Origin: Candidatus Iainarchaeum sp.
Lineage (GTDB): Archaea > Iainarchaeota > Iainarchaeia > Iainarchaeales > VGJJ01
Assembly: GCA_016198125.1 (NCBI GenBank)
Contig: JACQJG010000018.1
Coordinates: 2,843 to 66,842 of the forward strand
Reading direction: 5' to 3'
DNA: 64,000 nt
The translations under genes and the position numbers were made by a program. Shown here in pieces: positions 9,447 to 49,869 of this stretch (within the stretch, counting starts at the first letter, position 1; each line of letters opens with the position of its first letter). Under the pieces are notes generated by a model. That model searched no databases, was not told where the DNA came from, and saw only the letters and a program-made list of their open reading frames with translations.

Positions 9447-9517
9447 TGCAGTCGCCGGGAATCGAACCCGGGCCTCGACCTTGGAAGGGTCGAACGCTAC
9501 CTCTACGCTACGACTGC
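9447..9517 (-). tRNA. tRNA-Gly (anticodon UCC)
   Basis: Minus-strand RNA GCAGUCG...CGACC-CUUCCAA-GGUCG...GGGUUCGAUUCCC...CGACUGCA, with a 7-bp acceptor stem, T-loop and anticodon loop. The D-stem is short. No CCA is encoded. Confidence 0.8.
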
Positions 9518-10265: not shown

Positions 10266-10292
10266 GCACAGGCATTCCAACACGAGTGGGCA

Positions 10293-10363
10293 TGCAGCGA
10301 CCGGGAATCGAACCCGGGTCACGACCTTGGGAAGGTCGTAGAATGCCATTATCCCATCGCTGC
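10293..10363 (-). tRNA. tRNA-Gly (anticodon CCC)
   Basis: Minus-strand RNA GCAGCGA...CGACC-UUCCCAA-GGUCG...GGGUUCGAUUCCC...UCGCUGCA. Confidence 0.8.
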
Positions 10364-10411
10364 CTTGTTTAGTTTTTTTGTGCGCGTGGTTTTTAAGGCG
10401 TTGTATGGGAA

Positions 10412-11008
10412 TTAGTTGTCTTCATGGCGCGCGTCGAAGCGAATGACCCTGTTATTGTCCCGGCGCTCGGCTTTTCTTCTGTCGTCTTTTCTGCGCGTGG
10501 ACGCCCAGTAAAAGTGTTGTTTGGACGGGTCATATCCAATGAGGTAGTCTCTCTTGCCAGTCGTAAAACGTGCGCCGGGCATTTTTTCAGGCCCTATTTT
10601 TAGATGTGCAATGGCTTGGGCGCGCGTGCAGGAATGTTCTTTTGCAATCATTCTTACGCGGTGTTCGACTGCTTGGCGTGTTTTTGTAAACCATTCTTTA
10701 GGTAATGCCTTGTCTGCCGCGTATTTGGTTGGAATGTATTCCCTCCAAGCCATTGCTTCGCGCCTGCCTTTGAAGGGGGGCTTAACGCTCTGGTTTTCGC
10801 GCCATTCCTTGCGTAAATCGTTTTCATGGGTTCTGTTTTCAAACCCGCTTCTGCGTTCTCTTCCGGTGTACACGCCCTTTTGCGGTGCGTATTGTAAGGC
10901 AGGTTCGCCTTCGTTTAGAGTTCCCAATTGCATGTGCGCAGGCTTTATCACCCGAATGGACAAACCTTTAATGGGCGCATGCGGGGTGGTGGAGCGTTTC
11001 TTGGGCAT
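10412..11008 (-). CDS. Hypothetical basic (R/K-rich) protein
   Basis: 198-aa ORF with balanced composition and no recognisable motif. Confidence 0.4.
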   Translation of the reverse strand: MPKKRSTTPHAPIKGLSIRVIKPAHMQLGTLNEGEPALQYAPQKGVYTGRERRSGFENRTHENDLRKEWRENQSVKPPFKGRREAMAWREYIPTKYAADKALPKEWFTKTRQAVEHRVRMIAKEHSCTRAQAIAHLKIGPEKMPGARFTTGKRDYLIGYDPSKQHFYWASTRRKDDRRKAERRDNNRVIRFDARHEDN

Positions 11009-11053
11009 TGAATGACTGAACCTTTTTTTGGCTTATTATGGTTTTGCTTTTTT

Positions 11054-13579
11054 TCATGATTGAGCAAGGACTTGGACTTCTTTTTGCAGGGCTTGAACCT
11101 TGTCTGTTTTTTCCCACGTGAATTCAGGTTCATTTCTTCCAAAGTGTCCATACGCTGCCGTTTTTTTGTAAATGGGCCTGCGCAGGTCAAGGGCTTCAAT
11201 GATTCCTTTGGGGGTTAAGGGAAATATGTTGCGCACGGCTTCGGATAAAACTTCTTCGCTTACCTTTCCAGTGCCAAACGCGTTCACGTATACACTTACC
11301 GGTTGTGCCACTCCAATGGCGTAAGCCAATTGTATTTCGCATTTATCCGCGAGCTTGGCCGCTACAATGTTTTTGGCAATGTAGCGCGCCATGTAGCACG
11401 CGCTGCGGTCCACTTTGTTGGGCTCTTTTCCGGAATTGTGGCAAACAAATCCGTTGGCCGTATAAGTGTGTGAAAATGGAATATTCAAATCATATGTATG
11501 GGAAAAAGAGGGTATTCTATTTTGTAGTTTCGAATAATAGTGCCCCATATAATAGAGTTCTTGAAGTTTGAGGAATTCTGGTTCATTTTTAAAAAATTCT
11601 TCATACGTTTCTGTGAATTCTTTCAATTTTTCATAGGTTAATTCTTTTGTAGCTTTGCCTTCATTGCTTCTTGTAAATCGTGCAATTTTACATTTATCCA
11701 ATTTCTGTTCTTTTAGTGGGAGCTTTTTGAATAGATGAATAATTCTGTTTCGTTGGTTTGGAATGATTAACCAATCTTTTTTTCCAATGGACTTTCCTTC
11801 TAATATTTTTTGCTTTCGTGAAAGTTTGAATCCAATGTTTTCTAAAAATAAGTTACCACCTTTGCTTCCTTTGATGGTTAAGTCGTAGCGGTCATGTTTG
11901 GAGTTAATCAGCCTTCCTTTTATGTAAGCGGGTTTTTTTCCAACTTTAACAGTTCTTAGCACAGAAATGATGCCAAAGTTAAGCAAAAGTAACTGAGTTT
12001 GCTCAGCTAACTTTTTGCTTGTGGTGGTCAAATGGATTCTCTTTGTGTTCTTATTTCGTCCATCGATTCGAATGCTGCCATCCGTATCAAATAATCCGCG
12101 TAAAAACGCGGCGCAATTATTTTTACTGGCATTAAATATGGCTGTTGGAACGACTTTTTCATACGATTTTGCGTAATTGAGGCCCAAATTTTTCAAATAC
12201 GCCCTAAGCTCTACTCCTCCAATATAGGCCCAATGACCATAAACGTTGCCTTTATCGTTAAAGAGCCTAAAGAATACGTTTTGAACAATCGTTTTCATTT
12301 CGTTTTCGCATACGCATATTTTGAGGTGTCCTTTATCTGTGCAATCTCCGTCGCCGACCGATAAGCCCAGTAAGTAAGCATAATCTTCAGTTAATTTCTT
12401 TGGAAAAATATATTTTTTCTTTCTTCCTTCCGCTGTTCCTTCCCTATATGCATATTTAAACTTTGGAATTTCGTTGTCGCCAAAGAATCGGTTTTTTGTT
12501 TGAATAGCGAGCCAGTCGTTAGATACGAGTTTTTCAACCGGTTTCCAAACATAGTTTCCTGCGGGGTCTATGACCCGTATATTGTGATTGGGGGTTGCTT
12601 CTAATGAATACCCGTCATACGTTTGAATGATCTCGGTTTGCTTAATTCCGTTATCATACCAGTCTCCTGCTGGCATGGGGTGTACATCTGTTTTTACAAG
12701 CAAACTGTTTTCTCCAACTCTTTTACATTCGTCAAGTTTGATTAACCCTTTTTCAGTGTTAACAAGTGAATCGCCTGCCAGGCAAAACGCGCCTCCTCCG
12801 TGGGGCGCGTACCCTCCATACGTGTCCACAATGATTTTTCTTCCGGTTAAACCCGAGTCTGCCACAGGGCCTCCAATTTCAAATTTTCCTGTAGGGTTTA
12901 CAAAAATTTTTGTTTGCCCATCCATCATATTCCCGCAAACGGGTTCAATGACCTTCTCAATAAGGGTGTTTCGGATTTCCTCATGGTTTAACCCTTTTCG
13001 GTGGTGGGCGCTGACTACAACAGTGTCAATGCGTTTGGGTTTCCCGTTTTCGTATTCAATGGTGACTTGGCTTTTGCCATCCGGGTAAAGCCATTCAATT
13101 TCACCGCTTTTGCGTGCATGGGATAGTTTTTGCGTGAGTTTGTGTGCGAGGGTAATGGGTAATGGCATTAATTCAGGGGTTTCATTGCATGCAAATCCAA
13201 ACATCATGCCCTGGTCTCCCGCCCCTTCTTCTTTGTGCAGGCCTTCTCCTTCGTTGACTCCTTGTGCAATGTCAGGGGATTGTTCGGACACGGAAATCAG
13301 AACGGCACACGTGTCCGCGTCAAAGCCCATGTCCGTGTGAGTGTATCCTATTTCACGGATTGTATCGCGCACTACTTTCTGGAAGTCGATTCTGGCTTTT
13401 GTGGTGAGCTCTCCTGCCACCATTACAAAACCCGTTTTAATCAGGGTTTCAATTCCTGTACGCGAATAAGGGTCTTGTTTCAACACTGCGTCTACAATGG
13501 CATCGGATATTTGGTCGCACGTTTTGTCCGGATGGCCTTCGGTTACGGATTCGGATGTGAAATAGTATTTTCCCCTCAT
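11054..13579 (-). CDS. metK: S-adenosylmethionine synthetase, bacterial/eukaryotic type (MetK), with an in-frame ~450-aa intein
   Basis: From M (cat 13577-13579): [33 protein letters not shown]... and the MetK signatures. The P-loop GGGAF|[11 protein letters not shown] is split by a Cys...HN insertion. The exteins total about 391 aa. The longer ORF to 13783 adds a non-conserved basic leader. Confidence 0.9.
11435..12784 (-). mobile_element. Intein (Hint domain plus LAGLIDADG homing endonuclease) inserted in the metK P-loop
   Basis: It begins with CLAGDSLV after GGGAF and ends with FVCHN, directly followed by S ([11 protein letters not shown]). Block B is TPNHNIRV. There are two LAGLIDADG-type motifs, [12 protein letters not shown] and [14 protein letters not shown]. 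Confidence 0.85.
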
Positions 13580-17583: not shown

Positions 17584-17655
17584 TGCGATCGCCGGGAATC
17601 GGACCCGGGTCCCGACCTTGGCAAGGTCGGATCATAGCCACTAGACCACGATCGC
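17584..17655 (-). tRNA. tRNA-Gly (anticodon GCC)
   Basis: Minus-strand RNA GCGAUCG...CCGACC-UUGCCAA-GGUCGG...CCGGGUCCGAUUCCCGG...CGAUCGCA. Confidence 0.8.
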
Positions 17656-36537: not shown

Positions 36538-37035
36538 TTAAGCGTTTTTTGGGTTTTGAATGGAAACCACTACCAGGGGTTCGTTAAGCGTTGGGGTGTG
36601 CGTTTTGTGGGCGTGGGCCAGTTGTTCTTCTGCTACTTCGAGTTTGCGCAGTTCGACTCCAATTTGATGGAATTGAAGGGTTGCCATGAGCGTTAGAACC
36701 GTGCCTCCAAGGATGAATGCCACTTCCACAAGGGTGTAGTACACATGGGCGGATTCAATGAATTTGAGTAAGGTGAATCCTGTGGCGAACAAGCCCAACC
36801 CAATGCCGATTATGTTTAATTGGACGCGTTGGTGGGCCAACAGCGTGCGCTGCTTGGCCAGGGTGGTGCGTTGGTCTACCGAGTAATCTTCCGGGTCAAA
36901 TGCATTCATGCGTGGGCCTATTACGCGTTCAATGTATTTTAATCTTTCAGCAGGCCTTTCCGCTTCCATCGGATTACCTTTAAAGCGTGGTTTGTTCTCT
37001 TGTAGAGTATGGAATTGGATGGTTGGATTGCCCAT
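36538..37035 (-). CDS. DUF202 (YidH-like) membrane protein
   Basis: ERTTLAKQRTLLAHQR plus two or three TM helices. The start may be the internal MEAERP. Confidence 0.5.
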   Translation of the reverse strand: MGNPTIQFHTLQENKPRFKGNPMEAERPAERLKYIERVIGPRMNAFDPEDYSVDQRTTLAKQRTLLAHQRVQLNIIGIGLGLFATGFTLLKFIESAHVYYTLVEVAFILGGTVLTLMATLQFHQIGVELRKLEVAEEQLAHAHKTHTPTLNEPLVVVSIQNPKNA

Positions 37036-38103
37036 GCCGTGGAGCGTTTAAAGGATTCGGATGCGCGCTTGCGGGAACTTTCAATGCACGTGGGTAAAGT
37101 CTCCCGCACGGGTTTAAGGGCCTTAAACAGCCCGTTTGTATTGGAGGACGCGCTTATTCAAGCAGTGCCATCCGTGTCCTTTACAGGCAAAGTGGCTGGA
37201 GTTGACTCCGGTTTTTTGGACCGTGCACTGTACGTGTTGGACATCCTGCTGGTCAAGTCTGTGGGCGTGGTGTTTGAGTACCAGGGCAATCGTTTGGTGA
37301 AATCCGTGTACTACCCGCGTTTTTTTCAGTTTCCAAAACCCGAGGTGAGCGCGGAGGGCTTGGAACGGGATGAGGTGCACTGCAGTGTTTCGCTCACGCG
37401 TTTGCGCGAGGAAGTGCGCGTGGCCAGGGAAATCATTGAACGCCATTCTCCCCAATTTCTTTTCCTGGATGGTTCTCTGGTGCCCCAGTTCATGGACAAG
37501 CCGGGGAAGGATTCCAAGGTAAAAGTATTCTACCATGAAGTGTTGAACGACTTTCAACTGTTATTTCAAACCGCATTCGATCATGAGTGCACGCTGGTGG
37601 GCGCCGTTGAGGACTCCCGGGGAAACCGTTTTCGGGCGCTGATGGAAGAAACCATTTTTCCAGGTCTTGGCGTTCATGCGGATTTGGGTTCGTGCAAGGA
37701 TGCAAGCCTATTGGAATATGTGCTCAGTCCAGGAGAGCGCACGCTTGCATTTTCTTATGCCCAGGACGTTTCCAAGCACCCTGTACTTGCGGACATGAAT
37801 GAGAAATGGGCGCGCGCCCTGCATGCCCTGTATGTGAAGCCTTCAGCATACGACCGGCCATTGCGGGTGGAATTCCTTTGCCATGATTTAACTCAAATGC
37901 CTGCGTGCGCCGGCGAAGTGGCGGGGATTGCGCTGAACCAGTCTTCACTGCACAAGGAATACGCGTTTCCTGCAGTGTTGATTGAAGCGGATTTGCGTGC
38001 CAGGCTGAAACCGGAGGAAGTGGACTGGGTGTTTGAGCGCATCATGCAAAAACTTGGGCGTAAAAACTTTTGGCTGCAGCGCAGGGATAAGAGGCCGTTT
38101 TAG
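37009..38103 (+). CDS. nurA: NurA 5'-3' nuclease
   Basis: 364 aa with the NurA-domain acidic motifs GVDSGF, FLDGSL and AVEDSRGNRF. Confidence 0.75.
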   Translation: MELDGWIAHAVERLKDSDARLRELSMHVGKVSRTGLRALNSPFVLEDALIQAVPSVSFTGKVAGVDSGFLDRALYVLDILLVKSVGVVFEYQGNRLVKSVYYPRFFQFPKPEVSAEGLERDEVHCSVSLTRLREEVRVAREIIERHSPQFLFLDGSLVPQFMDKPGKDSKVKVFYHEVLNDFQLLFQTAFDHECTLVGAVEDSRGNRFRALMEETIFPGLGVHADLGSCKDASLLEYVLSPGERTLAFSYAQDVSKHPVLADMNEKWARALHALYVKPSAYDRPLRVEFLCHDLTQMPACAGEVAGIALNQSSLHKEYAFPAVLIEADLRARLKPEEVDWVFERIMQKLGRKNFWLQRRDKRPF

Positions 38104-38149
38104 CCAAAAAGTTAAATATTACTGGGGTAATACTATTAATGGTGGTTTT

Positions 38150-38335
38150 ATGGAGACAGTGCCGGCTAAGATAACTCCAAAGCTTGTGCAGGAAATGGAT
38201 GACTTGGTCAAAGATGGGTGGTATGCCTCGCGCAGCGAAGTCATCAGGGATGGCGTTCGGGAGCTTGTTAAAAAGCTTCGAAGTGAACGCATTATGCGCG
38301 CAATCAAAGAGGATGTGGAATGGGGCCTAAAGTGA
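38150..38335 (+). CDS. Ribbon-helix-helix (CopG/Arc-type) antitoxin-like protein
   Basis: From the internal M: METVPAKITPKLVQEMDDLVKDGWYASRSEVIRDGVRELV, an RHH pattern. It overlaps the PIN gene start by 16 nt. Confidence 0.5.
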   Translation: METVPAKITPKLVQEMDDLVKDGWYASRSEVIRDGVRELVKKLRSERIMRAIKEDVEWGLK

Positions 38336-38793
38336 GGGCAGTCATTGACGCAGGTCCTATTATTCACTTGCGCGAGTTGGGCCTTCTCAGAGCCTTTAAT
38401 CCGTTTGAGCTTTTTACAGTTCCACTGGTTTTTAATGAAGTTAAAGTCCTGCCTTCTTTCATTTCAGTTGAAGCTGCGTTTGATGGAATGAAAGCCGATC
38501 TTATTGCCGCAGAGTGCGGGCTGGGTTTGGCGGAAAGCCAGTGCATGGCTTTGGCCAAGAAAAAGGAAATTTTGTTGTTTTTGACAGATGACCTGGACGC
38601 GCGTACAACAGCGGAGGCTTTGGGATTGGAACCCCACGGAACAATTGGAATTTTGTTGAAAGCATATCGCAAAGGCCTTTTTTCGCGTAAAGAAGTTGTG
38701 AGGCATATTCAAAGTATTCCACGAAAATCCACCCTGTATATTACACAGGAAATTATAGAGTATGTTGTCCGTGAGATCAAGCGTAAGAGGTAA
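38320..38793 (+). CDS. PIN-domain protein (toxin-like nucleic-acid-binding protein)
   Basis: AVIDAGPIIHL (N-terminal Asp) and FLTDDLDARTTAEALG with further acidic residues, consistent with PIN. Confidence 0.55.
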   Translation: MGPKVRAVIDAGPIIHLRELGLLRAFNPFELFTVPLVFNEVKVLPSFISVEAAFDGMKADLIAAECGLGLAESQCMALAKKKEILLFLTDDLDARTTAEALGLEPHGTIGILLKAYRKGLFSRKEVVRHIQSIPRKSTLYITQEIIEYVVREIKRKR

Positions 38794-38800
38794 TGTTGAA

Positions 38801-39010
38801 ATGAAACCGTTTCCAAAGCCAAATCCAAAATCAAAGCAAGAACCTGAATATCCTTCCAGGCACGTGCGCGTGTGCCCTCAATGCGGTTCTATGCATGTTA
38901 AAGAGTACATGGGGGGCGTGTTGGGCCAAAAGTTTCAGTGCATGGAATGCGGGTACATTGGCCCGGTATTGGAATCTTTGAAGGGTTTTTTTAGGGAAGG
39001 GAAAAAGTGA
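38801..39010 (+). CDS. Small zinc-ribbon protein
   Basis: CPQCGS...CMECGY four-Cys ribbon. The start is chosen at MKPFPKP. Confidence 0.35.
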   Translation: MKPFPKPNPKSKQEPEYPSRHVRVCPQCGSMHVKEYMGGVLGQKFQCMECGYIGPVLESLKGFFREGKK

Positions 39011-39019
39011 GGGCGTGCA

Positions 39020-39904
39020 ATGCCGGTCGTTGAATGCTTGGATGTTGGGGGCACGCACACCCGGTATGCGTTGATTGAAAATGAAAAGGTGCTGGTCAAA
39101 GAACGTGTTGAAACACGCTGTGAAAACGCGCAGGGTTTGCTGGACTTCATTCAGGAAGTGTGCGTGCGCAACCGTTCGCGCGCAGGCGTTTCTGGAGTGA
39201 ATGTTTCATGTGCGGTGCTTCCAGGGCCTGTCCGGAAAGGAGTGTTGCTGAACGCGCCTCCCTTGGGTTTGCAGTACCCGCTTGATTTTTCCTGTTTGGA
39301 AGGCGTGCTGGGCAATGCAGTGATAATTGAGAATGACTTGAATGCAGCCGTGCGCACGGAATTAGAGAAAGGGGTTGGAAGAACCGTGGATTCGTTTTAC
39401 CTGTTGGCGTTGAGTACAGGGATTGGTGCGGGGATTGTGTTGAATGGAAAGGCTGTGAAAGGTCTGGCCGGGGAGTTTGGGCACTGTGTGTTGGACGCGT
39501 CCTCCAATGCCTTTTTGTGTGCGTGCACGCGCAGGGGGTGTTGGAGCGCGTACAGCAGCGGGAAAGGGCTTGAAATGCAGGCACGCGCGAATGGCTTTGA
39601 ATGGAGTGCCAGCGGGGTGTTTGATCATGCCTTGAACGGCCATGAAATTGCGTGTGAAATTGTAAAGCGTGCGCGTGCGTTCAATGCGCGTGGATTGGGG
39701 GTTATGGTGAATGCCTTGGAAGTGCAGGCCATTGTGGTGATGGGTTCCCTGGGCTTGAACCGGTTTAAGGAAGTTGTTCCGCTCCCTGGGGAAGTGGGTT
39801 GTTTTACCGTTAATCCAGTGCCGCGCATCGTAAAAACAGCGTTGGCCGACGACCTGGGATGGGAGGGCGCGTATTTTCTTGGAATGGACTTTCTTGACAG
39901 GTAA
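39020..39904 (+). CDS. ROK-family sugar kinase (glucokinase-like)
   Basis: LDVGGTHTRYAL, LALSTGIGAGIVLNG, GEFGHC and a CxCxxxGC zinc motif. Confidence 0.7.
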   Translation: MPVVECLDVGGTHTRYALIENEKVLVKERVETRCENAQGLLDFIQEVCVRNRSRAGVSGVNVSCAVLPGPVRKGVLLNAPPLGLQYPLDFSCLEGVLGNAVIIENDLNAAVRTELEKGVGRTVDSFYLLALSTGIGAGIVLNGKAVKGLAGEFGHCVLDASSNAFLCACTRRGCWSAYSSGKGLEMQARANGFEWSASGVFDHALNGHEIACEIVKRARAFNARGLGVMVNALEVQAIVVMGSLGLNRFKEVVPLPGEVGCFTVNPVPRIVKTALADDLGWEGAYFLGMDFLDR

Positions 39905-39941
39905 GGGGAAACATGCAAACGTTAAAATGCTTTAACATTCA

Positions 39942-41504
39942 TTGTTTTTGTACAGGTTTTTCTTCATGGCGTTGGACAAGGAACTGGGAACAATTGTTTC
40001 AACCCCTGAAAGCCCTTCCCCTTCTGCATTGGATTTTGTAGTCACAAAGGGGGTGGTTCACCGGGGGCAATTTGTGGAATTGGAGTACCCGGAAGGGATT
40101 ATGATTGCGTGGGTATTGGACGTGTTCAAAACCAACAAGTACTTTGAACGCGCGGATGCAGTGAAGGAATTTGAATCCAATGGCTCCAAGTTGAATGACC
40201 AGTTCCCGGTTTCCGAGTGGGAGTTTTTAATGGCCAAAGCCAAGCCTTTGGGCGTTTTTCTTGGAAAGCAGTTTAAGCGGCCTTCCATTCCGCCTTCTCC
40301 CGGCACCAAAGTTTTTGTTGCCTCTGACGAGCATTTGATTTCCTTTTTGGGCTTGGACATGGAGAACGGGTTGCTGGTAGGCAGCATGGAATTTCATGAT
40401 GTTCCTGTAAAACTGAATTTGACGCGGCTCCTGCAAAAGCATTGCGCGGTTTTAGCCATGTCGGGTGCAGGAAAATCGATTTTCTGCACGGATTTGCTTG
40501 AGGAACTCCTTTTTCGCAAACGGGAAGCTGGCCGATTAGCCGCATTCGTATTCGATGTTCATGGCGAATACTCTTCCTTGGCCGAGCCTGCGGAAAAGCC
40601 TTTCAGGGATTTTTCAAATCAGACGCGCTGGGTTAAGGCGCGCGACATTAAGATTGCAGTTTCAAAGCTTTCTCCGTATGTCCTGGCAGGGTTCATGCCC
40701 AACATGTCTTCCGTTCAAAAGCGCGAGCTTGCGCGCGTATTTGAATCCCTGCACAAGTCCATGCGCGATGGCAATGGCCCTTTTGATTTGCGGGACGTGC
40801 GTTCATTGTTGGTGGAAGACAAGGAGTTGAAGGACAATGTAAAAACGTCTTTGCTGGGGTGGTTGCATGAGTTGGAAGAACTCAAGTTGTTTGACAAAAT
40901 CGACCGGCCTTCAATAGTTGACCTTGCCAAGCCCGGCACGCTTTCAGTCATTGACTTGTCCGATATTACGAATTTGAAAAAAAAGCAGGTGATTGTATCC
41001 TACTTTTCCGGGGCATTGTTTTACCTGCGCCGGGATAAAAAAGTCCCCCCCGTGGTGTTGGTGGTGGAGGAATCCCATCAGTTCATTCCGGAGGGCACTT
41101 CAAAGGAAGGCGCGTTGTCCAAGTCCATGCTGCGCACGATTGCGCGCGAGGGAAGAAAATTCGGGTGCTCGTTGTGCCTTGTTTCCCAGCGTCCCATTCA
41201 ATTGGACACCACTACATTGTCCCAGTGCAATACGCATGTGTACTTGCGCATCACCAATCCTTATGACTTGGACCACATTGCCAAGACCAGCGAGGGCTTT
41301 GACTCGCGGAGCACGGACATTATTTCCTCGCTTAAAGTGGGGGAAGCGTTGATTGCAGGCGAAGCGTTGAATTTTCCCGTGTTCCTGCGCGTGCGCCAGC
41401 GCCTTTCCCAGCCATCAAAGCATGAACGCTCATTGGAGCAGGCCGCGCGCGAGTTTGAAGAATCCAGTGAAAAGGCGCGCGCGGAAGCAAAAGAATTTCT
41501 TTGA
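39942..41504 (+). CDS. herA: HerA-family (FtsK/HerA superfamily) DNA helicase/ATPase
   Basis: Walker A AVLAMSGAGKS and Walker B VVLVVEESHQFIP, plus a conserved C-terminal GEALIAGEALNFP. Confidence 0.8.
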   Translation: MFLYRFFFMALDKELGTIVSTPESPSPSALDFVVTKGVVHRGQFVELEYPEGIMIAWVLDVFKTNKYFERADAVKEFESNGSKLNDQFPVSEWEFLMAKAKPLGVFLGKQFKRPSIPPSPGTKVFVASDEHLISFLGLDMENGLLVGSMEFHDVPVKLNLTRLLQKHCAVLAMSGAGKSIFCTDLLEELLFRKREAGRLAAFVFDVHGEYSSLAEPAEKPFRDFSNQTRWVKARDIKIAVSKLSPYVLAGFMPNMSSVQKRELARVFESLHKSMRDGNGPFDLRDVRSLLVEDKELKDNVKTSLLGWLHELEELKLFDKIDRPSIVDLAKPGTLSVIDLSDITNLKKKQVIVSYFSGALFYLRRDKKVPPVVLVVEESHQFIPEGTSKEGALSKSMLRTIAREGRKFGCSLCLVSQRPIQLDTTTLSQCNTHVYLRITNPYDLDHIAKTSEGFDSRSTDIISSLKVGEALIAGEALNFPVFLRVRQRLSQPSKHERSLEQAAREFEESSEKARAEAKEFL

Positions 41505-41673
41505 CTCGGCCTTTTTGGGAAAAAGGCCTGCGAAAAGCCTTTTTGCTTTGGCAAAAAGCCTTGGGAAAAAAGCGGGATATTGTGTTGCAATACCCCTCTA
41601 ATATCAACACCCTTCAAGGCGCGCTTTCCTCAATGAAGACACCCCTGCCTTTAGTCGGGGGGGGATGTCCTTT

Positions 41674-42048
41674 TTATTTTGTAGTAAGGTACGCGATTGG
41701 AATGAGCCCAAGCACGGCGCCTCCTAGAAGGATAAGCAATGCGCTCAGAAGCACAAAGCCAATGCTTTTGAGGTCGTTAAATCTTTTTTTTGCCTTTAGG
41801 ATTATTGTGCCAAGGGCGATGACAAAAATCGCGGCCACTCCCGCACCATACCGCGTGCCTGTTTGAAATGCGTTTTCGAAGTTTTCCAGGGGGGTGAATG
41901 CCCCCAGCACGCCCCCAACGACTCCCCCTGCAAGAGCCACGAGTACCAGATATGCAAAATAGAACCCAACTCCTTGCACGGGCGTTCTTTTTAATTTGAA
42001 TGTTGTAAGCCCGTAAAACATTCCCTGACCGGCTTTTTTCCTGACCAT
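41674..42048 (-). CDS. Small membrane protein (3-4 TM)
   Basis: 124 aa, highly hydrophobic (GFYFAYLVLVALAGGVVGGVLGAF, VAAIFVIALGTIIL). Confidence 0.4.
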   Translation of the reverse strand: MVRKKAGQGMFYGLTTFKLKRTPVQGVGFYFAYLVLVALAGGVVGGVLGAFTPLENFENAFQTGTRYGAGVAAIFVIALGTIILKAKKRFNDLKSIGFVLLSALLILLGGAVLGLIPIAYLTTK

Positions 42049-42079
42049 GGCTGAAATACAATGCCCGGCTTATTAACCT

Positions 42080-43681
42080 TTGTTTTGGCCCTCCAAGCCA
42101 TATGCTATGAGATTCACCGGCAATGCACGCCCTCACGGCGTATTTAAACCATTAAAACGAGGGTTGTGCATGTCCGCTCCCAATACGTTTGCCTTGTCCA
42201 AGGTAACCTATTTTCCTGAGAAGCGTTCAGTTCACGTGGAGTTTTGCAATTCCCTTCACCGCGTTTCGCGTGCGTTCCCGTTCTTTCCCTCTTTTTTTGT
42301 TTCCAATGCTGTTTCAAGGGAATTGTTGGACAACGTGTTAAGCTTGTATGACCGCAAGCGGTTCAAGGTAGTGCAACACCCGTATTCCTTTGAGGTGCAG
42401 GCCGCTACTTTTGAGCATTTAAAAGAGTTGGCGCGCTTAGTGGAAGAATGCACTGCGCAACCGGTTTCCATCATGGAATCCGAACGCCAGTTCTTGTGTG
42501 CACAGAATTGGAGTTACTGGGATGTTTTTGCCCAAAGCCCCGAGGGAACGCTTTCTCCAAGTTCTTCCCTGTTGGAGGATTGCCGGTTGGATTTCTTTTC
42601 AGATGGGTTGTTTGAAACCCTTTCAAGGCTTTCCAGGAGCGACCCTGAAAGGGAAAAAGCGCTTTCACATTCCCTTGCATTGTCCAACGTGTTGCGCGTT
42701 CCAGTGCCCTTTGTTCCCATGCACCGTTCCGGGCAGGCCGCGTTGTGGCTTGAAAATACCTGTTTTTCGCATGCCTTTGCTTTTCCTTCAATGGAAAACC
42801 TCCAGGGCCTGGTTTCTAAACGCGTCCGCATGCCCCGGTGGGAGCGAAACATTACCCAAGTGCGTTTTAACGCGTTGTGGAGCAGTTTGTGTTCGCTGAA
42901 TTTTTACAATTTAGGTTTGGAAACCGTGGATTGTCCTTGTTGTGTCCCCCTAAGCGTGCGTTCATTCAACGTGCTTCCGCATTCCCTTGTAAAAGTGCGC
43001 TTTTTGGAGGACGCATTCTTTTTTGTTACCCGCCTGGCTTCGTGGGGGGATTATTTTCATGGCAGGCTCCCGGCAAGGTACGCGCGTGAACGCTTCCAGC
43101 AGGAACAAGGGCTTTCATCGCCTGCCATGGGGCCCTTTTACAGGAATCAAGTGGAGTCCATTCCATGGGTGGATGCCCAGGAATTGGAACGCGAAGGAGT
43201 GGTGCGGGTAGTGGATGAACGCGCGGAATGGCATTGGCATTGTGTGAAGAAAGAATCTTTTTTTGCTTTGGACTTAAGTCGTTTGAATGTCCTTGCCGGG
43301 AAAGCGCGTGCGCTTGCTTCCAAGATGGAAGAAGCAGGTATTCAATCCAATGGCCTGCGTGCTTCCCTGGTATTGCAGGGTAATGGACGTTTTCTGGCAT
43401 TGCGTGCCCTGGAAAGAGAAGCCCGTGCCCTGTGGGTTTTTTTGCCTGGTTTTTTAAAGCACGTTCCTTGTTTTGGGCGTGCACTTGAAGGCATTCAAGC
43501 CCGTGTGCTTGAACAGTTTTCCAATGCCTCGTTAAAGGAGGGAGTGCGGCCTGTACAGGTGAGTGCCCAGCAGGCGTGGGTGCAGGGATCCAATGTACTG
43601 GGCGTATTGCAGGGTTTTGCGCGTTCCGAGCGCATGCCTGTTCCCGAGGTTGGAAACAAATATCCCTGGCGAAGGGTTTGA
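42080..43681 (+). CDS. Large hypothetical protein located between herA and rpoK
   Basis: 533-aa ORF. The probable start is the internal MSAPNT at about 42170. It lacks Mre11 phosphoesterase motifs. A CPCC motif is present. Confidence 0.45.
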   Translation: MFWPSKPYAMRFTGNARPHGVFKPLKRGLCMSAPNTFALSKVTYFPEKRSVHVEFCNSLHRVSRAFPFFPSFFVSNAVSRELLDNVLSLYDRKRFKVVQHPYSFEVQAATFEHLKELARLVEECTAQPVSIMESERQFLCAQNWSYWDVFAQSPEGTLSPSSSLLEDCRLDFFSDGLFETLSRLSRSDPEREKALSHSLALSNVLRVPVPFVPMHRSGQAALWLENTCFSHAFAFPSMENLQGLVSKRVRMPRWERNITQVRFNALWSSLCSLNFYNLGLETVDCPCCVPLSVRSFNVLPHSLVKVRFLEDAFFFVTRLASWGDYFHGRLPARYARERFQQEQGLSSPAMGPFYRNQVESIPWVDAQELEREGVVRVVDERAEWHWHCVKKESFFALDLSRLNVLAGKARALASKMEEAGIQSNGLRASLVLQGNGRFLALRALEREARALWVFLPGFLKHVPCFGRALEGIQARVLEQFSNASLKEGVRPVQVSAQQAWVQGSNVLGVLQGFARSERMPVPEVGNKYPWRRV

Positions 43682-43795
43682 AGAATGCCTTTTTAAAGCT
43701 TTTGGGGGCTGTTTTCTTTTACGTTTTTGGAATCCTTTTTTTGGGTTTATTAGTGATTGCATTCTTGGAATGTAAGGGAAAGGAGTTTTTTTGAC

Positions 43796-44002
43796 ATGGA
43801 GCGTTTGACGCGGTTTGAATACACGCGGTTGGTTAGCGCGCGTGCCCTGCAATTGTCTTTGGGGGCTTCTCCCTTGGTTAAACACGAAAAGGGTTTGACG
43901 GTGTATGAGATTGCCAAAAAGGAATTGGATGACAAGGTCATTCCGTTGGCTGTAATCCGAACGTATCCTACAGGAACCATTCAACGCGTGGAAGTGGTAT
44001 GA
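43796..44002 (+). CDS. rpoK: DNA-directed RNA polymerase subunit Rpo6/RpoK (RPB6/omega family)
   Basis: MERLTRFEYTRLVSARALQLSLGASPLV, the RPB6 signature. Confidence 0.75.
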   Translation: MERLTRFEYTRLVSARALQLSLGASPLVKHEKGLTVYEIAKKELDDKVIPLAVIRTYPTGTIQRVEVV

Positions 44003-44003
44003 G

Positions 44004-44306
44004 ATGGGGAAAGCAGTGCCCAAAGGGGTAAAGCGAAAGGCCGCGTTGTTGATGACTGAGTTTCCAAAGGAGTTTGGGGATTTTGAAAAAAACAAGGTTT
44101 TTTTGTCTTCGTTGAAAATTCCGTTTGACAAGATTACTCGAAACCTGGTGGCTGGTTTTATTGCCAGGGAAAACCGTAAAGCCCATGAAAAGGCCCGGGC
44201 AGAGGAAGCTTCAAGGAAAAAGGCATTGGAAGCAGCCATGGCGCCAAAGCCCAAGCCTGTGATTTCCACTCAAACGCCAGAAACTCTTCCCACTCCAAGC
44301 TCTTGA
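44004..44306 (+). CDS. rps17e: Ribosomal protein eS17
   Basis: MGKAVPKGVKRKAALLMTEFPKEFGDFEKNKVFL...ITRNLVAGFIAR matches the eS17 N-terminal domain. The C-terminus is a K/A/P-rich tail. Confidence 0.8.
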   Translation: MGKAVPKGVKRKAALLMTEFPKEFGDFEKNKVFLSSLKIPFDKITRNLVAGFIARENRKAHEKARAEEASRKKALEAAMAPKPKPVISTQTPETLPTPSS

Positions 44307-44327
44307 TTCTTTTTCAGGGTCTTTTTA

Positions 44328-46694
44328 TTATTCCATTTCACGCATTTCAATGGGAATTTCTCTTTTTTCGGGTTTTGTCAACCCGTCAACGTTTTTGTCG
44401 CGTTGTAACACGTAAAGAGTGCTGGTTGCAGCCTTTTCCACTTCGGGGTTGTGCGTGATGATAAAAATTTGTTCTACAAGCCCGGGCAAATGGGTTTTCA
44501 TGAGGCGTGAAAGCCTGTCCACTGTTTTAACATCCAAATTATGCGTGGGTTCATCCAGGATGATCCAGCTCAACTGCCGGGTTAAAACAAGGGCAATGGC
44601 CATGCGCAGGGTCAATGCAACGGCGCTTCGTTCTCCGCCCGAGAGAATGCCTTCTGCCCGCACCCATTCTCCGGAGCGTTCGCGTACTTTTACTTCATAG
44701 TTTCCTTCTTCGATTTGAATGCGCGCGCACGTGTAATCCTCGTAGGGATACAAGTGCGGCCACAGGTTTTCCATTCCCTGGTTGATGGCCGTTAGCATGG
44801 TTTCGCGCAATTGTATTTGGGTTTCCTTTAGCGCGTTCACAAAGAACCCCATTTTTTGCGCGCTGTTTTCCAGGCGTTGAATGCGCTGGCCTTCTCCTTC
44901 AAGTTGGGCTTGGATTTTTTGAAGGCGTTCCAGGGCCTGTCTTGTTTCGCGCGCGTTTTCCTTTAATCCAAGCAGTTCCTTTTCCAGGGCCGCGTGTTGC
45001 GCGTTCATGCGTGCAGCGTGCGCGCGCGTGCGCGTTGCCTCTTCCTCGTTGTACGCCAGTGCTTCGAGTTTGAATGCGAGTTCGTGCACGCGCTGACCGC
45101 ACTGGCCTGCTTCTTTTTGAATGCCGATCAGTTCCACGGCCATTCGTATGCGTTCAAGGTCTTTTTCTATTTTTTCGCGCGTTCCTTTCCACGCGTTTTC
45201 ATTCCATTCTTTGGCGCGTGCTTCCAGGTTTTGGGCTTTTTCTTCGCAGTCAAGCACTCGTTTTTTGAGTTCTTCGACTTCCTCGAGTGTTCGGCCTGCC
45301 GCTTTGAGGTCCAGCTGCTCGCCTTTTTTTCTTTCAAGCGTTGCTTCCAGGTTTTCAAGTTTTTCTTCCAGTGCGCGTGCTCTTTTCTTAATGGCCTGGT
45401 GGCCGTGCCGTGCATCCTCCAATTCCTTTTCAGCGGTCTTTTTGAGTTCGTGTATTTCCTTTTCTTTGAGTGGCTTGCTGCACACTGGGCACTGGGGGCC
45501 GGTTTCATCGAGTTTTTCAACGCGTTCTTTCATGATTTCAATTTTTTCGTTCAATGCGCTTTCCTCTTTGCTTGCGTGTTGAAACTCCTGTTTTCCGGTT
45601 GAGCGTTCTTTTTCGAGTTCTTCAAGTGCTTTGGCGATTAAATTTTTTTGTTCCTGTAATTCCTCTTTTGATTGCGCGGGCATGCTTTTTGCACGGACTC
45701 CGGCCTGTTTTCTTGCATCGTGTGCGCGTTCCCGGAATGACTGGGCTTCGAGTGCGGTTTTTTGTGCTTTCAGGCGCTGGTCTTCCAGTTCTTTTCGTTG
45801 GCGTTCAAGTTCTTCCTGGGCATGTCGGGCTTCTTGTTCTGTCTGAAAGGGGTGTCCTGCAAGGTTTTTTTCAAGTTCTTTTACCCGGTCTTCCAGTGAT
45901 TCCCTGCGCCCGCGCGTCCTGTGCAATTCCTCTTTGAGTCTGGAATACTCCTTTTCAATCGCGTTGAGTGCTCGCAGGGTTTCCTGTAGTTTTGCGTCTT
46001 CTGCTTTCAGGCGTTCCAGGTCCGATTGCACGTCCAATGCCTGTTTTTCCTTTCTTGCCAGGCGCTCGTGCAATTCGGTTAAATCGTTCACGTTGAATTG
46101 CGTGGAAAGGTCTTCAAGCCATTTTCTCTTTTCTTCGGCTTCTTTTTTCAGGCGGTTTTGCACGTTTACGCTGTTGGACCGCACTTCTTCGTATTTGTCG
46201 AGGCCCAGTAATTCATCGAATTTGGCTTTGCGCTGGCCGGGGTTTAATTTCAGGAAGTAATCCACTTGGTTTTGTTCTGCGTACACGGCGCGTGCAAACA
46301 GGTCATAATTCATTTCAAGAATGCTTTGAATGCGTGCGTTGACTTCCTGCACTTTGGGGCCTGCGAGGAGGCGCTGGTTTTCCCACACCTTGGCTTCATT
46401 GGTTCCGTTGGCTTTAATTACGCGTTCTACCAGGTACTGTTTTTTTTCGTACTCGAACTCCAGTTTTATGCGCGCGCTTTCGGCTTTGAAGGGCTTGCGC
46501 GTGAGCACTTCTTTTAACGCCACTTCTCTTCCCTGCAGTGCAGGAAACGTTCCAAACAATGCAAAGCAAATAGCATCCATTACGCTGGACTTGCCGCTTC
46601 CCAGCACTCCAATCAATACGTTTGTTCCCGGTCCAAACTCCATGCGCGTTTTGTGGTGGGTTTTCCAGTTTTCAAGTTCAATGCACGTGATCAT
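44328..46694 (-). CDS. rad50: Rad50 ATPase (SMC-like, zinc hook)
   Basis: N-terminal Walker A GVLGSGKSS, a long coiled coil, the central hook CPVC, and C-terminal LSGGERSAVALTL...ILDEPTHNLD (ABC signature, Walker B, D-loop). Confidence 0.85.
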   Translation of the reverse strand: MITCIELENWKTHHKTRMEFGPGTNVLIGVLGSGKSSVMDAICFALFGTFPALQGREVALKEVLTRKPFKAESARIKLEFEYEKKQYLVERVIKANGTNEAKVWENQRLLAGPKVQEVNARIQSILEMNYDLFARAVYAEQNQVDYFLKLNPGQRKAKFDELLGLDKYEEVRSNSVNVQNRLKKEAEEKRKWLEDLSTQFNVNDLTELHERLARKEKQALDVQSDLERLKAEDAKLQETLRALNAIEKEYSRLKEELHRTRGRRESLEDRVKELEKNLAGHPFQTEQEARHAQEELERQRKELEDQRLKAQKTALEAQSFRERAHDARKQAGVRAKSMPAQSKEELQEQKNLIAKALEELEKERSTGKQEFQHASKEESALNEKIEIMKERVEKLDETGPQCPVCSKPLKEKEIHELKKTAEKELEDARHGHQAIKKRARALEEKLENLEATLERKKGEQLDLKAAGRTLEEVEELKKRVLDCEEKAQNLEARAKEWNENAWKGTREKIEKDLERIRMAVELIGIQKEAGQCGQRVHELAFKLEALAYNEEEATRTRAHAARMNAQHAALEKELLGLKENARETRQALERLQKIQAQLEGEGQRIQRLENSAQKMGFFVNALKETQIQLRETMLTAINQGMENLWPHLYPYEDYTCARIQIEEGNYEVKVRERSGEWVRAEGILSGGERSAVALTLRMAIALVLTRQLSWIILDEPTHNLDVKTVDRLSRLMKTHLPGLVEQIFIITHNPEVEKAATSTLYVLQRDKNVDGLTKPEKREIPIEMREME

Positions 46695-46768: not shown

Positions 46769-47155
46769 TTATGGGTGTTTGTATTTCATGCGCGTGCCTG
46801 GCTTGTTTGCAGGCCCGTAGGGGTGCATGCGATTACGGATTTTTGTGGTGCGCATGCGTTTTCTTCCCAGGCCTGGGATGAGCGTGGGCATATGGGTTCC
46901 AACCAAATTGCCGTGCTTGTCTATGTACACAAACGTGAACTGTTCCAGGAACGTTTTCAGCTTTTTATTGCGCCGTGATTCCTCTCCCAAGGCCTTTCCC
47001 ACGTCAATGGTGTGGGACTTGATTTTTTTGAGAATTCCTCTATACGTTGCCGGGTATTGGGCGCTGAGCGCGCGGTTCTTGCGCATGTCCAATAAGTAGG
47101 TTATGCGCTTGTGCGATTCCGCGTTCAGCTTTTCCGGGTATTTGGGTCGTGCCAT
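46769..47155 (-). CDS. Hypothetical basic protein (128 aa)
   Basis: ORF with an R/K-rich C-terminus (GRKRMRTTKIRNRMHPYGP). It could be a small RNA-binding or ribosomal-type protein, but no family could be assigned. Confidence 0.4.
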   Translation of the reverse strand: MARPKYPEKLNAESHKRITYLLDMRKNRALSAQYPATYRGILKKIKSHTIDVGKALGEESRRNKKLKTFLEQFTFVYIDKHGNLVGTHMPTLIPGLGRKRMRTTKIRNRMHPYGPANKPGTRMKYKHP

Positions 47156-47210: not shown

Positions 47211-47471
47211 CTATAAAAGGTCCATGCGTTCCACTTCAACTTGTTCCACGCCTTGCACGCGTTTAAGTGCCATAGTAAGCCTTTCAATGGCCCCAGCGTC
47301 CTTGTCTTCTATTACATAGGCTGCTTTTACAATGCTGGCTCCAAATCCAATGGGAACCAGCTGGCAGTCTTTGAATCCTTCCAATGCCAGGCCTTTAACA
47401 CTTTCCATGATTTTAGGGGATTCTTCCACGTCCACAGGGCTGATGCGAAATACGACCAATGCTTTTCCCAT
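47211..47471 (-). CDS. ef1b: Translation elongation factor aEF-1 beta
   Basis: 86 aa: VVFRISPVD...PIGFGASIVKAAYVIEDKDAGA...VEVERMD matches the aEF1B fold. Confidence 0.8.
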   Translation of the reverse strand: MGKALVVFRISPVDVEESPKIMESVKGLALEGFKDCQLVPIGFGASIVKAAYVIEDKDAGAIERLTMALKRVQGVEQVEVERMDLL

Positions 47472-49130: not shown

Positions 49131-49550
49131 TCATCTCAACGGGTTCACTGCTTTGATTCCCGGGATTCGTTCAAAGTCCTTTGTGTTTTCCGTGTAAATG
49201 GTTTGGATTCCATTTCGTTGGGCAGTCATGCTTAACAAAGTGTCATAAAAATCGTGCTCTTTTTCAACATTCAGGTATACGGCCTTTTGTACATCTGACA
49301 CTGTATCTATTATTATTTCTTGAAATAGGTGTGCGAATAAGAAAACATATTCATTGATTTCTGAGATTGGAAGTATTGATTTTTTGTGCATTACATTGGC
49401 AAATTCTCGTATGTTTTGAAGTGCGATAGTAAAAAAATAAGGATTTTCTTGGGCTAATTTCATAAGTTTTCGTGATTTTTCATGCTTTTCAACTTCCTTG
49501 GCGCTGGCATAGTATACGAGTATGTTGGTGTCTATGAGTGCTTTTTCCAT
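49131..49550 (-). CDS. vapC: PIN-domain ribonuclease (VapC-like toxin)
   Basis: ALIDTNILVYY (N-terminal Asp), conserved acidic residues (FFTIALQNIREF, DTLLSMTAQRNG) and YTENTKDFERI. Confidence 0.7.
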   Translation of the reverse strand: MEKALIDTNILVYYASAKEVEKHEKSRKLMKLAQENPYFFTIALQNIREFANVMHKKSILPISEINEYVFLFAHLFQEIIIDTVSDVQKAVYLNVEKEHDFYDTLLSMTAQRNGIQTIYTENTKDFERIPGIKAVNPLR

Positions 49551-49563
49551 TCAATCCCTCCAG

Positions 49564-49869
49564 TTATTCAGAATTTGAATCGTTGACCTGTTTCATGAGC
49601 CGCTCAAAACGTTTACCTGTATAAGCGTCTTCCCGTTTGAATGTTCCAATCCCCAAGTCCTGATGCCTGTCTGACAGTTCCCATGCCCGCTTCCATGCCA
49701 TTCTTCGTTTTGCTTCTTTTGCAAGCAAATCCAATGCCTCTTCCACAGTCTCTGATAGCGCGCCTTTTTTCCCGCCTTTGAGTTCCTTGGCGAGGCGCCT
49801 GAGCTTTTGCTCGGTTTCAGTCTTCAATGAAAGCAAAATTTGACCCATGCAATACATATGGTTGTCCAT
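49564..49869 (-). CDS. Putative antitoxin (VapB-like) upstream of vapC
   Basis: 101-aa ORF directly upstream of the PIN gene on the same strand, with a charged helical character. Confidence 0.4.
   Translation of the reverse strand: MDNHMYCMGQILLSLKTETEQKLRRLAKELKGGKKGALSETVEEALDLLAKEAKRRMAWKRAWELSDRHQDLGIGTFKREDAYTGKRFERLMKQVNDSNSE

Follow-up and report, generated by a model that had tools for sequence, protein, structure and literature searches.

A dispersed NurA-HerA-Rad50 locus of Iainarchaeia carries a reduced and apparently inactivated family-B DNA polymerase homolog

Results

A 64-kb stretch of a Candidatus Iainarchaeum sp. metagenome-assembled genome (MAG), hereafter the window, encodes the double-strand break (DSB) repair proteins NurA, HerA and Rad50 and, between HerA and Rad50, a protein of 503 residues that we call u503. 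An earlier note on this DNA reported nurA, herA and rad50, and all three proved to be present at or near the coordinates and strands it gave, with their motifs intact in Pfam and NCBIfam scans and in the translations. We called genes from the open reading frame (ORF) map together with Pfam, NCBIfam and PADLOC family scans. The nurA gene (37009-38103, plus strand) encodes a 364-residue protein, the 5'-3' nuclease that partners HerA in end resection, that matches Pfam NurA at 32.9 bits (cut-off 21; E = 6e-8) and in which the aspartate-bearing motifs GVDSG and FLFLDGSL can be read; a search of PDB sequences gave no match for it. herA, also on the plus strand, probably begins at an ATG (39966-41504; the ORF opens at a TTG at 39942) and encodes a hexameric DNA translocase of 512 residues. 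Its product matches Pfam DUF87/HerA (5e-26), contains Walker A (SGAGKS) and Walker B (VVEESH) motifs, and has DSB-repair HerA as its top NCBIfam model (2.3e-44), above the anti-phage HerA models. On the minus strand, rad50 (44328-46694; 788 residues) matches Pfam SMC_N, the Rad50 zinc hook and SbcC Walker B, has Rad50 as its top NCBIfam model (1.2e-59), and encodes Walker A, the CPVC hook, the LSGGE signature and Walker B (ILDEPT). NurA, HerA and Rad50 retain their catalytic and ATPase motifs.

Between herA and rad50, on the plus strand, lie u503 (42170-43681), rpoK and rps17e, and rad50 is convergent with the resulting herA-u503-rpoK-rps17e string. The earlier note described a protein of unknown function and 533 residues in the slot after herA. 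That ORF is real (42080-43681, from a TTG start), but the deposited protein begins at an ATG at 42170 and is 503 residues long; u503 is identical to this hypothetical protein of Candidatus Diapherotrites archaeon (locus tag HY393_03960). A TATA-like box, TATTTAAA (42141-42148, plus strand), can be read in the sequence about 25 nt 5' of the ATG and may serve as the promoter of a leaderless u503 transcript.

Conventional annotation provided little information regarding u503. The protein has no Pfam, NCBIfam or PADLOC match, and a word-indexed homolog search matched only u503 itself. An exhaustive HMMER search of a protein library assembled a family of 143 cluster representatives, nearly all of about 500 residues (median 503 among the 79 members of at least 470 residues). 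When 55 members were scanned singly, the only matches were to PSF2_N (five members), DUF1744 (two) and Gins51_C (two), all at E of at least 0.005; we rejected a relationship to these three as noise, given their chance-level scores.

Profile and structure comparisons placed the family among family-B DNA polymerases (PolBs). Searched against PDB sequences, a profile of 55 family members returned a single match, the PolB of Pyrobaculum calidifontis (5mdn_A, E = 0.0033), in an alignment that covers motif A ('aelDFSsvW..yNlGfeT' versus 'LDFSSMYPN..YNLSPDT') as well as the motif B-C region. A 98-sequence profile matched 5mdn_A at E = 0.0014, followed, over the same region, by Pol alpha and KOD Pol at E of about 0.43, a value not significant alone. 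In hhalign, residues 167-281 of the u503 family aligned with residues 329-445 of Pfu Pol (E = 1.4e-4, probability 53%); the Pfu Pol query sequence is identical to 3a2f_A. An AlphaFold2 model of u503 computed from the alignment (predicted local distance difference test score [pLDDT] 93.8, predicted template modeling score [pTM] 0.91) gave 160 Foldseek matches in the PDB at E < 1e-3, led by 5mdn_A (4.7e-9). The best 50 of the 160 are all PolBs, comprising archaeal PolB, E. coli Pol II and engineered variants, and Foldseek against a viral library (BFVD) found viral PolBs only, with weaker scores. With Pfu Pol as the tblastn query, neither the window nor the loci retrieved for comparison yielded a canonical PolB, and u503 itself was not detected. 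On its modeled fold, u503 is a PolB derivative consisting of an N-terminal domain, palm and fingers. We could thereby rule out an Mre11-like reading of u503, and with it the suggestion that the 533-residue protein stands in for Mre11, since u503 has neither phosphoesterase motifs nor conserved nuclease-type residues and its fold is that of a PolB.

The model and alignments also indicate which parts of a polymerase u503 has shed. In the AlphaFold2 model, the strands and helices of residues 1-130 succeed one another as they do in the N-terminal domain of PolBs. Only about 36 residues separate this domain from the segment equivalent to Pfu residue 329, a position at which Pfu Pol has an exonuclease of about 200 residues; with so short a linker, u503 has no exonuclease domain. 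Two long helices at residues 364-429 correspond to the fingers and a hairpin at 460-472 to motif C. The chain then ends at residue 503, about 38 residues after motif C and about 10 residues past the point aligned to residue 585 of the 783 in 5mdn, and the thumb domain is therefore missing.

Motif A of the family is recognizable (eLDFSxvW...N.GfET). Its aspartate column, however, varies among the 55 aligned members (D in 45, N in five, S in two, and R, E and Q in one each), and the residue is arginine, R232, in the u503 of the window. The positions aligned to the DTD of motif C are occupied by S/D/N/G, K/N/S and S/N/E, and no column from 457 to 476 holds a conserved acidic residue in these 55 members; nor are the K/N/Y positions of motif B conserved in the alignment. 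Conservation instead falls on structural F, P, W and G residues, on N247, and on four invariant cysteines, three just after motif A (C255, C257 and C258) and the fourth at C358, which probably stabilize the protein through a metal site or disulfides. The median isoelectric point of the family is 8.4, and its members have no terminal PCNA-interacting peptide box. Taken from model and alignment together, u503 is without an exonuclease, a thumb or conserved motif-C carboxylates, and its motif-A aspartate is dispensable. We infer that such a protein would be incapable of two-metal nucleotidyl transfer and, judging from the model, of gripping a primer-template duplex.

To place the locus in its lineage, we scanned species-representative genomes for HerA and mapped the resulting 80 loci by tblastn and hidden Markov model (HMM) searches. 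The herA loci nearest to that of the window belong to Iainarchaeum and other Iainarchaeia MAGs and to the I. andersonii single-cell genome, and HerA is 48-61% identical to these Iainarchaeia orthologs; loci of Aenigmarchaeota, Undinarchaeota, Hadarchaeota and others are more distant. Approximately 35 loci of Iainarchaeia (Diapherotrites, DPANN) share the order nurA-(variable cargo)-herA-u503-rpoK-rps17e, with rad50 and the gene for aEF-1 beta (ef1b) on the opposite strand. The interval from nurA to herA holds 0-3.6 kb of variable genes, and that from herA to u503 ranges from 64 bp to 2.9 kb. Most related loci have a nurA ortholog (29-50% identity) upstream of herA. Downstream of u503, rpoK is found in every Iainarchaeia locus of sufficient extent, and in the relatives rps17e always adjoins rpoK; ef1b is conserved beside rad50 in about 30 loci. 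Judged by gene order, the dispersed arrangement of the repair genes is the lineage-wide conserved state in Iainarchaeia. The operon herA-mre11-rad50-nurA, which the earlier note took as the usual archaeal arrangement, holds for hyperthermophiles and not for Iainarchaeia. The comparison with related genomes that the note proposed thus shows the order in the window to be conserved rather than exceptional.

The u503 gene is itself part of this conserved arrangement. It was detected in 35 Iainarchaeal loci, in all of them downstream of herA, and in none of the loci from other lineages; it was not detected in the Iainarchaeal loci L008 and L014, which have little sequence downstream of herA. Among the loci examined, the family is accordingly restricted to Iainarchaeia. 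In these genomes it has diverged more than any other gene of the cluster, at 24-33% identity as against the 48-61% of HerA. u503 lies on the same strand as herA, less than 260 bp away in about half of the Iainarchaeal loci. Its tightest linkage, however, is to rpoK-rps17e, so that u503 may, but need not, act specifically with HerA or Rad50.

An Mre11 ortholog is not encoded near rad50 in the loci surveyed from this lineage. Phosphoesterase motif patterns searched in six frames over the whole 64-kb window found no match. We also built an Mre11 HMM from 80 DPANN and other archaeal Mre11 sequences and ran it on six-frame ORFs of at least 40 residues; its best match in the window was at E = 0.38, while every Mre11 in the control loci was recovered at E < 1e-60. 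These null results bear out, for all 64 kb, the earlier statement that the locus contains no ORF with Mre11 motifs. No Mre11 adjoins rad50 in the window, and the Iainarchaeal herA loci, taken with 10 kb on each side, likewise contain none. In Aenigmarchaeota and Undinarchaeota, the rad50 orthologs do adjoin mre11, and the HMM located Mre11 directly upstream of rad50 in nine loci (L037, L038, L039, L040, L044, L050, L065, L070 and L072). In non-Iainarchaeal DPANN loci of this kind, herA and rad50 converge with a spacing as short as 41 bp (L065) or 56 bp (L072), and Mre11 has about 400 residues.

Canonical Mre11 proteins are encoded elsewhere in two relatives that have the same repair locus. One of 407 residues (P0343) lies at 114.4-115.6 kb of the 147-kb contig CAZILS010000002.1, the first 9 kb of which carry nurA-herA-u503-rad50 (L004), about 106 kb away. 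The other, of 409 residues (P0363), is encoded on JAZDFD010000024.1, which belongs to the same assembly (JAZDFD01) as L001, the nearest relative of the window's herA, although on a different contig. For both proteins the top model is NCBIfam Mre11, with scores that match those of rad50-adjacent Aenigmarchaeal Mre11. The stand-alone mre11 loci (L081-L085, L088-L090 and L092) have a conserved setting of their own. In seven of seven independent contexts from Iainarchaeia or 'Diapherotrites', mre11 lies beside a gene for an ADP-forming acetyl-CoA synthetase, with which it is directly convergent in six, and three of the seven have a co-oriented DHH/DHHA1 (RecJ/GAN-like) gene upstream, immediately adjacent in two. 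On these genomic contexts, Mre11 is relocated in the Iainarchaeia lineage, not lost. The earlier note had left open whether Mre11 is encoded elsewhere, has been replaced or has been lost; because two relatives with the same locus encode a distant canonical Mre11, the first outcome is favored over the other two. By analogy with these relatives, the Mre11 of the window's own genome, in which our search covered the window, is most probably encoded at another site.

The remaining genes of the locus are a mixture of conserved neighbors and variable cargo. Three of them, rpoK, rps17e and a 115-residue minus-strand ORF, had been overlooked in the earlier note. rpoK (43796-44002, plus strand) encodes RNA polymerase subunit K/Rpb6, of 68 residues (Pfam RNA_pol_Rpb6, 9.6e-8), and rps17e (44004-44306, plus strand) encodes ribosomal protein eS17, of 100 residues (Pfam Ribosomal_S17e, 2.4e-4, with a score of 21.4 bits that is slightly below the cut-off of 22.8). 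Beyond rad50, ef1b (47211-47471, minus strand) encodes the 86-residue aEF-1 beta (Pfam EF1_GNE, 4.5e-10). A basic ORF of 128 residues (46769-47155, minus strand) lies upstream of rad50, at the position that mre11 occupies in other DPANN; it has no Pfam or NCBIfam match and no homolog in related loci, and may not be a real gene.

In the window, nurA lies 1.9 kb upstream of herA. The interval contains an RHH/PIN-like pair, a Zn-ribbon gene and a ROK kinase gene, as had been reported. The RHH protein (ORF 38033-38335, plus strand, with a likely start at 38150) is an antitoxin-like protein of 61 residues with weak Pfam RHH_8/RHH_1 matches and NCBIfam matches to CdrS (1.5e-7) and a ParD antitoxin (5e-7), both under cut-off. 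The gene that overlaps it by 16 nt (38320-38793, plus strand) encodes a PIN-like, DUF3368-type protein of 157 residues with a sub-threshold match to Pfam DUF3368 (1e-3) and a match in PADLOC to the phage-defense candidate system PDC-S70 (3e-15), and is a probable toxin or candidate defense gene. Of the earlier assignment of these two genes to an RHH-PIN toxin-antitoxin pair, the gene arrangement fits; the family calls are less firm, with the RHH matches all sub-threshold and the PIN call dependent on DUF3368 and PDC-S70. A second RHH gene (101 residues) paired with a canonical PIN gene (139 residues, PF01850) is present at 49131-49869 on the minus strand, 2.4 kb past the repair locus.

The Zn-ribbon gene (38762-39010, plus strand) encodes 82 residues with a CPQC...CMEC pattern and several weak Pfam Zn-ribbon matches. 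By tblastn, homologs of about 80 residues lie between nurA and herA in L001, L002, L004, L007, L008, L011, L013 and L036, mostly directly upstream of herA, and comparison with these loci indicates that in the window the ROK kinase gene is inserted between the Zn-ribbon gene and herA. The kinase itself (39020-39904, plus strand; 294 residues) belongs to the ROK family of sugar kinases (Pfam ROK, 1.9e-38), and its matches to NCBIfam sugar-kinase models are all under the equivalog cut-offs. Other cargo in this interval in relatives includes HAD hydrolases, an acyltransferase, thymidylate synthase and, in I. andersonii, a PIN gene. Neither the RHH/PIN-like cassette nor the ROK kinase has a counterpart in the related loci compared, for which reason we regard both as genome-specific inserted cargo. 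nurA directly abuts herA in several genomes, other phyla included (L005, L006, L014, L043, L045-L047, L053, L075, L076 and L080).

Downstream of herA, the 115-residue minus-strand ORF (41674-42021) encodes a hydrophobic, membrane-like protein, and gene calls on Logan contigs include it. Neither Pfam nor PADLOC returned a match for it, and related loci contain no homolog; on this comparison it is an insertion peculiar to this genome. Between herA and this convergent ORF, just 3' of the herA stop codon (41505-41600), are G+C-rich palindromes, ggcctttttgggaaaaaggcc followed by gcctttttgctttggcaaaaagcc, which look like a bidirectional terminator.

Two further features of herA loci emerged from the survey. 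In L052 (10001-13027), the HerA match falls into two pieces, 10001-11263 and 12764-13027, suggesting an insertion of about 1.5 kb that is perhaps an intein or a mobile element. In many Aenigmarchaeota-type loci, an ORF for a metallophosphoesterase of about 200-330 residues (DLHxG...GNHD) is found a short way upstream of herA in the reverse orientation (L038, L040, L041, L050, L056, L058, L061, L062, L066-L068, L070-L072, L077 and L078). NurA was not detected by tblastn in most of these loci, and the metallophosphoesterase may be an alternative nuclease partner of HerA. Elsewhere in the window, an S-adenosylmethionine synthetase of 909 residues and of the bacterial/eukaryal MetK type (PF00438, PF02772 and PF02773; 11054-13783, minus strand) is split by an intein that bears a LAGLIDADG homing endonuclease, and three tRNA-Gly genes lie within 8 kb on the minus strand (9447-9517, 10293-10363 and 17584-17655), with the anticodons TCC, CCC and GCC.

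Discussion

We consider it probable that the window holds the ordinary DSB end-processing set of an Iainarchaeon in the gene order typical of its lineage, with mre11 relocated and with u503 as a reduced, non-catalytic PolB derivative. Gene orders outside the class suggest how this arrangement may have come about. The herA/rad50-mre11 layout of Aenigmarchaeota and Undinarchaeota is the probable ancestral state; in this scheme the ancestral DPANN genome had nurA-herA convergent with rad50-mre11, as these two lineages still do. On the path to Iainarchaeia, a block of u503, rpoK and rps17e would have been placed between herA and rad50, and mre11 would have moved to the distant site beside the ADP-forming acetyl-CoA synthetase gene, so that Mre11 and Rad50 came to be expressed from separate loci. 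The genome studied here would then have gained the RHH/PIN-like cassette and the ROK kinase gene in its nurA-herA interval and a small membrane ORF after herA. Presumably as in characterized archaea, HerA-NurA would resect 5' strands, and Rad50, together with Mre11 supplied in trans, would tether and process the ends. What the earlier note had flagged as anomalous is thus a rearranged but ordinary repair locus, and its new element is that the ORF of unknown function encodes a degenerate PolB. As far as the model indicates, u503 most likely serves replication or repair without catalysis, as a module that binds DNA or protein.

Several points weigh against this interpretation or limit it. The equivalence of the N-terminal domain is supported by Foldseek and the order of secondary structure but not by sequence: when the first 135 residues were compared with the corresponding domain of Pfu Pol, hhalign found nothing (Prob 0.03). 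Unrelated housekeeping genes of the locus, a GTPase gene and ef1b, are as syntenic as u503, and the gene order therefore says little about what u503 does. The Mre11 of this genome was found neither in the window nor among the Mre11 matches listed, and the protein may have been lost from this one genome. Finally, inferring inactivity from the absence of carboxylates has proved wrong before: PolB2 was once predicted to be inactive and was later shown to be active in translesion synthesis (PMC8764526, PMC11791011).

This last precedent bears on the alternative that u503 is a still-active, unconventional polymerase or nucleotidyl-transferase, working in the manner of PolB2 through alternative residues or a partner. 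In its favor, PolB2 (Dpo2) was wrongly predicted to be dead (PMC8764526, PMC11791011), the motif-A aspartate is present in 82% of u503 members, the palm core (N247, G249, E/D251 and T/S252) is well conserved, and the family has been maintained across 143 clusters. PolB2, however, keeps the distal motif-C aspartate (PMC2527604, PMC7544198), whereas not one column of the u503 hairpin shows a conserved acid. Ten of the 55 members, that of the window included, carry N, S, R, E or Q in place of the motif-A aspartate, the motif-B K/N/Y residues are not conserved, and there is no thumb to hold a primer-template; on balance we judge activity to be unlikely. A different possibility is that u503 is a dedicated non-catalytic partner of HerA-NurA, of Rad50 or of both, recruited at the time mre11 departed from the cluster, for instance to sense 3' ends or single-stranded DNA or to act as a bridge that took over the contact between Mre11 and HerA. 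In every sufficiently long Iainarchaeal locus u503 is directly downstream of herA on the same strand, with the gap below 260 bp in roughly half, and on the phylogeny the gene appears where mre11 and rad50 become separated. In Sulfolobus, mre11 follows herA and Mre11 contacts HerA (PMC2288612). Yet relatives keep Mre11 elsewhere, which leaves u503 nothing to replace, and u503 is linked more tightly to rpoK-rps17e than to herA. In addition, it has a TATA box of its own and is parted from herA in the window by a minus-strand gene, it lacks conserved nuclease-type residues, and the region around it is syntenic irrespective of function. Such a partnership therefore seems to us improbable. One version of it, which we offer as speculation with little expectation that it is correct, is that u503 represents a new class of non-catalytic repair factor, derived from a polymerase and recruited to HerA-NurA/Rad50 when mre11 left, whose N-terminal domain and palm would link resection to later steps by sensing single-stranded DNA or 3' ends. 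In archaeal replicative PolBs the N-terminal domain reads template uracil and hypoxanthine, and u503 might have kept such a uracil-reading pocket.

The two other alternatives concern the repair genes themselves. Mre11 could truly be lost from this genome, with Rad50 working alone or with another nuclease such as NurA. The 64-kb window contains no Mre11, none of the seven Mre11 proteins whose contigs were examined belongs to this MAG, and DPANN genomes are reduced. This proposal rests on about 64 kb of genome, however, and the Rad50 encoded there has intact ATPase motifs and zinc hook. Moreover, two relatives with identical locus architecture retain a distant Mre11, and five more contigs from 'Diapherotrites' or unclassified archaea have Mre11 at the same site adjacent to the CoA ligase gene; we regard a true loss as quite improbable. 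Lastly, herA, nurA and the PIN-like gene could form an anti-phage defense island, made up of a HerA-based system and PDC-S70, instead of serving in housekeeping repair. HerA does match PADLOC HerA models at up to 1e-52, as the PIN-like gene matches PDC-S70. Nonetheless, the leading NCBIfam model for HerA is of the DSB-repair type and outranks the anti-phage type, and HerA occurs with NurA and Rad50 in conserved chromosomal synteny in DPANN, Hadarchaeota and Asgard loci. The neighbors of herA are housekeeping genes, and only the RHH/PIN cassette is variable cargo. We rejected this reading, which appears very improbable, on synteny and on the NCBIfam ranking.

Comparison with known systems sharpens the picture of u503. 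Like PolB2 (Rogozin et al. 2008, PMC2527604; Timinskas et al. 2025, PMC11791011), it is a PolB derivative whose proofreading domain has decayed or disappeared and whose motif C is disrupted, and both are conserved, second, non-replicative PolB-like genes found near DNA-repair genes. The differences are substantial. PolB2 has the distal motif-C aspartate, a thumb and a recognizable dead exonuclease, all three of which u503 lacks; it can be detected as a PolB by sequence, whereas u503 has no Pfam or NCBIfam PolB match; and it resides in an operon with iRadA and PPB2 whose expression is induced by DNA damage (PMC11791011). Neither iRadA nor PPB2 lies beside u503, the flanks of which are herA (or cargo) and rpoK-rps17e in all 35 loci, and in half of these loci the flanking gaps are too short for extra genes. 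Also in contrast to PolB2, u503 occurs, in the loci examined, in Iainarchaeia alone. A non-enzymatic function has its best precedent in the C-terminal PolB module of eukaryotic Pol epsilon, a catalytically dead fold that is retained as a structural element or scaffold (Tahirov et al. 2009, PMC2669801). That module differs in being fused to an active polymerase, in keeping exonuclease-like and thumb regions, and in having a C-terminal Zn module. Its domain DUF1744 is matched by just two of 55 u503 members at a chance-level E of 0.018, and the fold is the only link seen between the two.

The locus as a whole can be compared in the same way. The herA-mre11-rad50-nurA operon of hyperthermophiles (Sulfolobus, Pyrococcus; PMC2288612) encodes the same NurA, HerA and Rad50 families, with motifs intact, as the window does. 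The window departs from it in that nurA and herA are split by cargo, rad50 is convergent, and mre11 is away, at more than 100 kb in a relative. Closer to the lineage, loci of Aenigmarchaeota and Undinarchaeota (L037, L039, L044, L065, L070 and L072) have orthologous proteins and the same convergence of herA and rad50. There, however, mre11 adjoins rad50 on its upstream side, and the interval between herA and rad50 is empty or holds an unrelated gene; in Iainarchaeia, u503-rpoK-rps17e occupies that interval and ef1b takes the place of mre11. Within the cargo, the RHH/PIN-like pair resembles type II (VapBC-like) modules in that a small RHH gene overlaps a PIN-like gene and the pair is variable cargo. 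It differs in that the PIN-like protein, a predicted toxin, matches only DUF3368, sub-threshold, and PDC-S70 and not the canonical PF01850.

The u503 family thus appears to be a new and extremely reduced, apparently inactivated, PolB-like family that is found only in Iainarchaeia among the loci examined. The searched text of a 2020 survey of PolB diversity (PMC7544198) contains no match to 'thumb', 'truncated' or 'Iainarchae'.

Because the repair locus is ordinary for its lineage, the original question regarding Mre11 is of little consequence, and the degenerate PolB is the more useful by-product of pursuing it. To our knowledge, u503, with an N-terminal domain, palm and fingers only, is the most reduced cellular PolB derivative known. 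Dead polymerases retained for structural roles are a recurring theme, exemplified by PolB2, the C-terminal half of Pol epsilon and poxvirus F12, and u503 would add a case to it. The gene would also provide a clean signature for the class Iainarchaeia, and the separate Mre11 and Rad50 loci of these archaea offer a natural case for studying regulation of the complex in DPANN archaea with reduced genomes.

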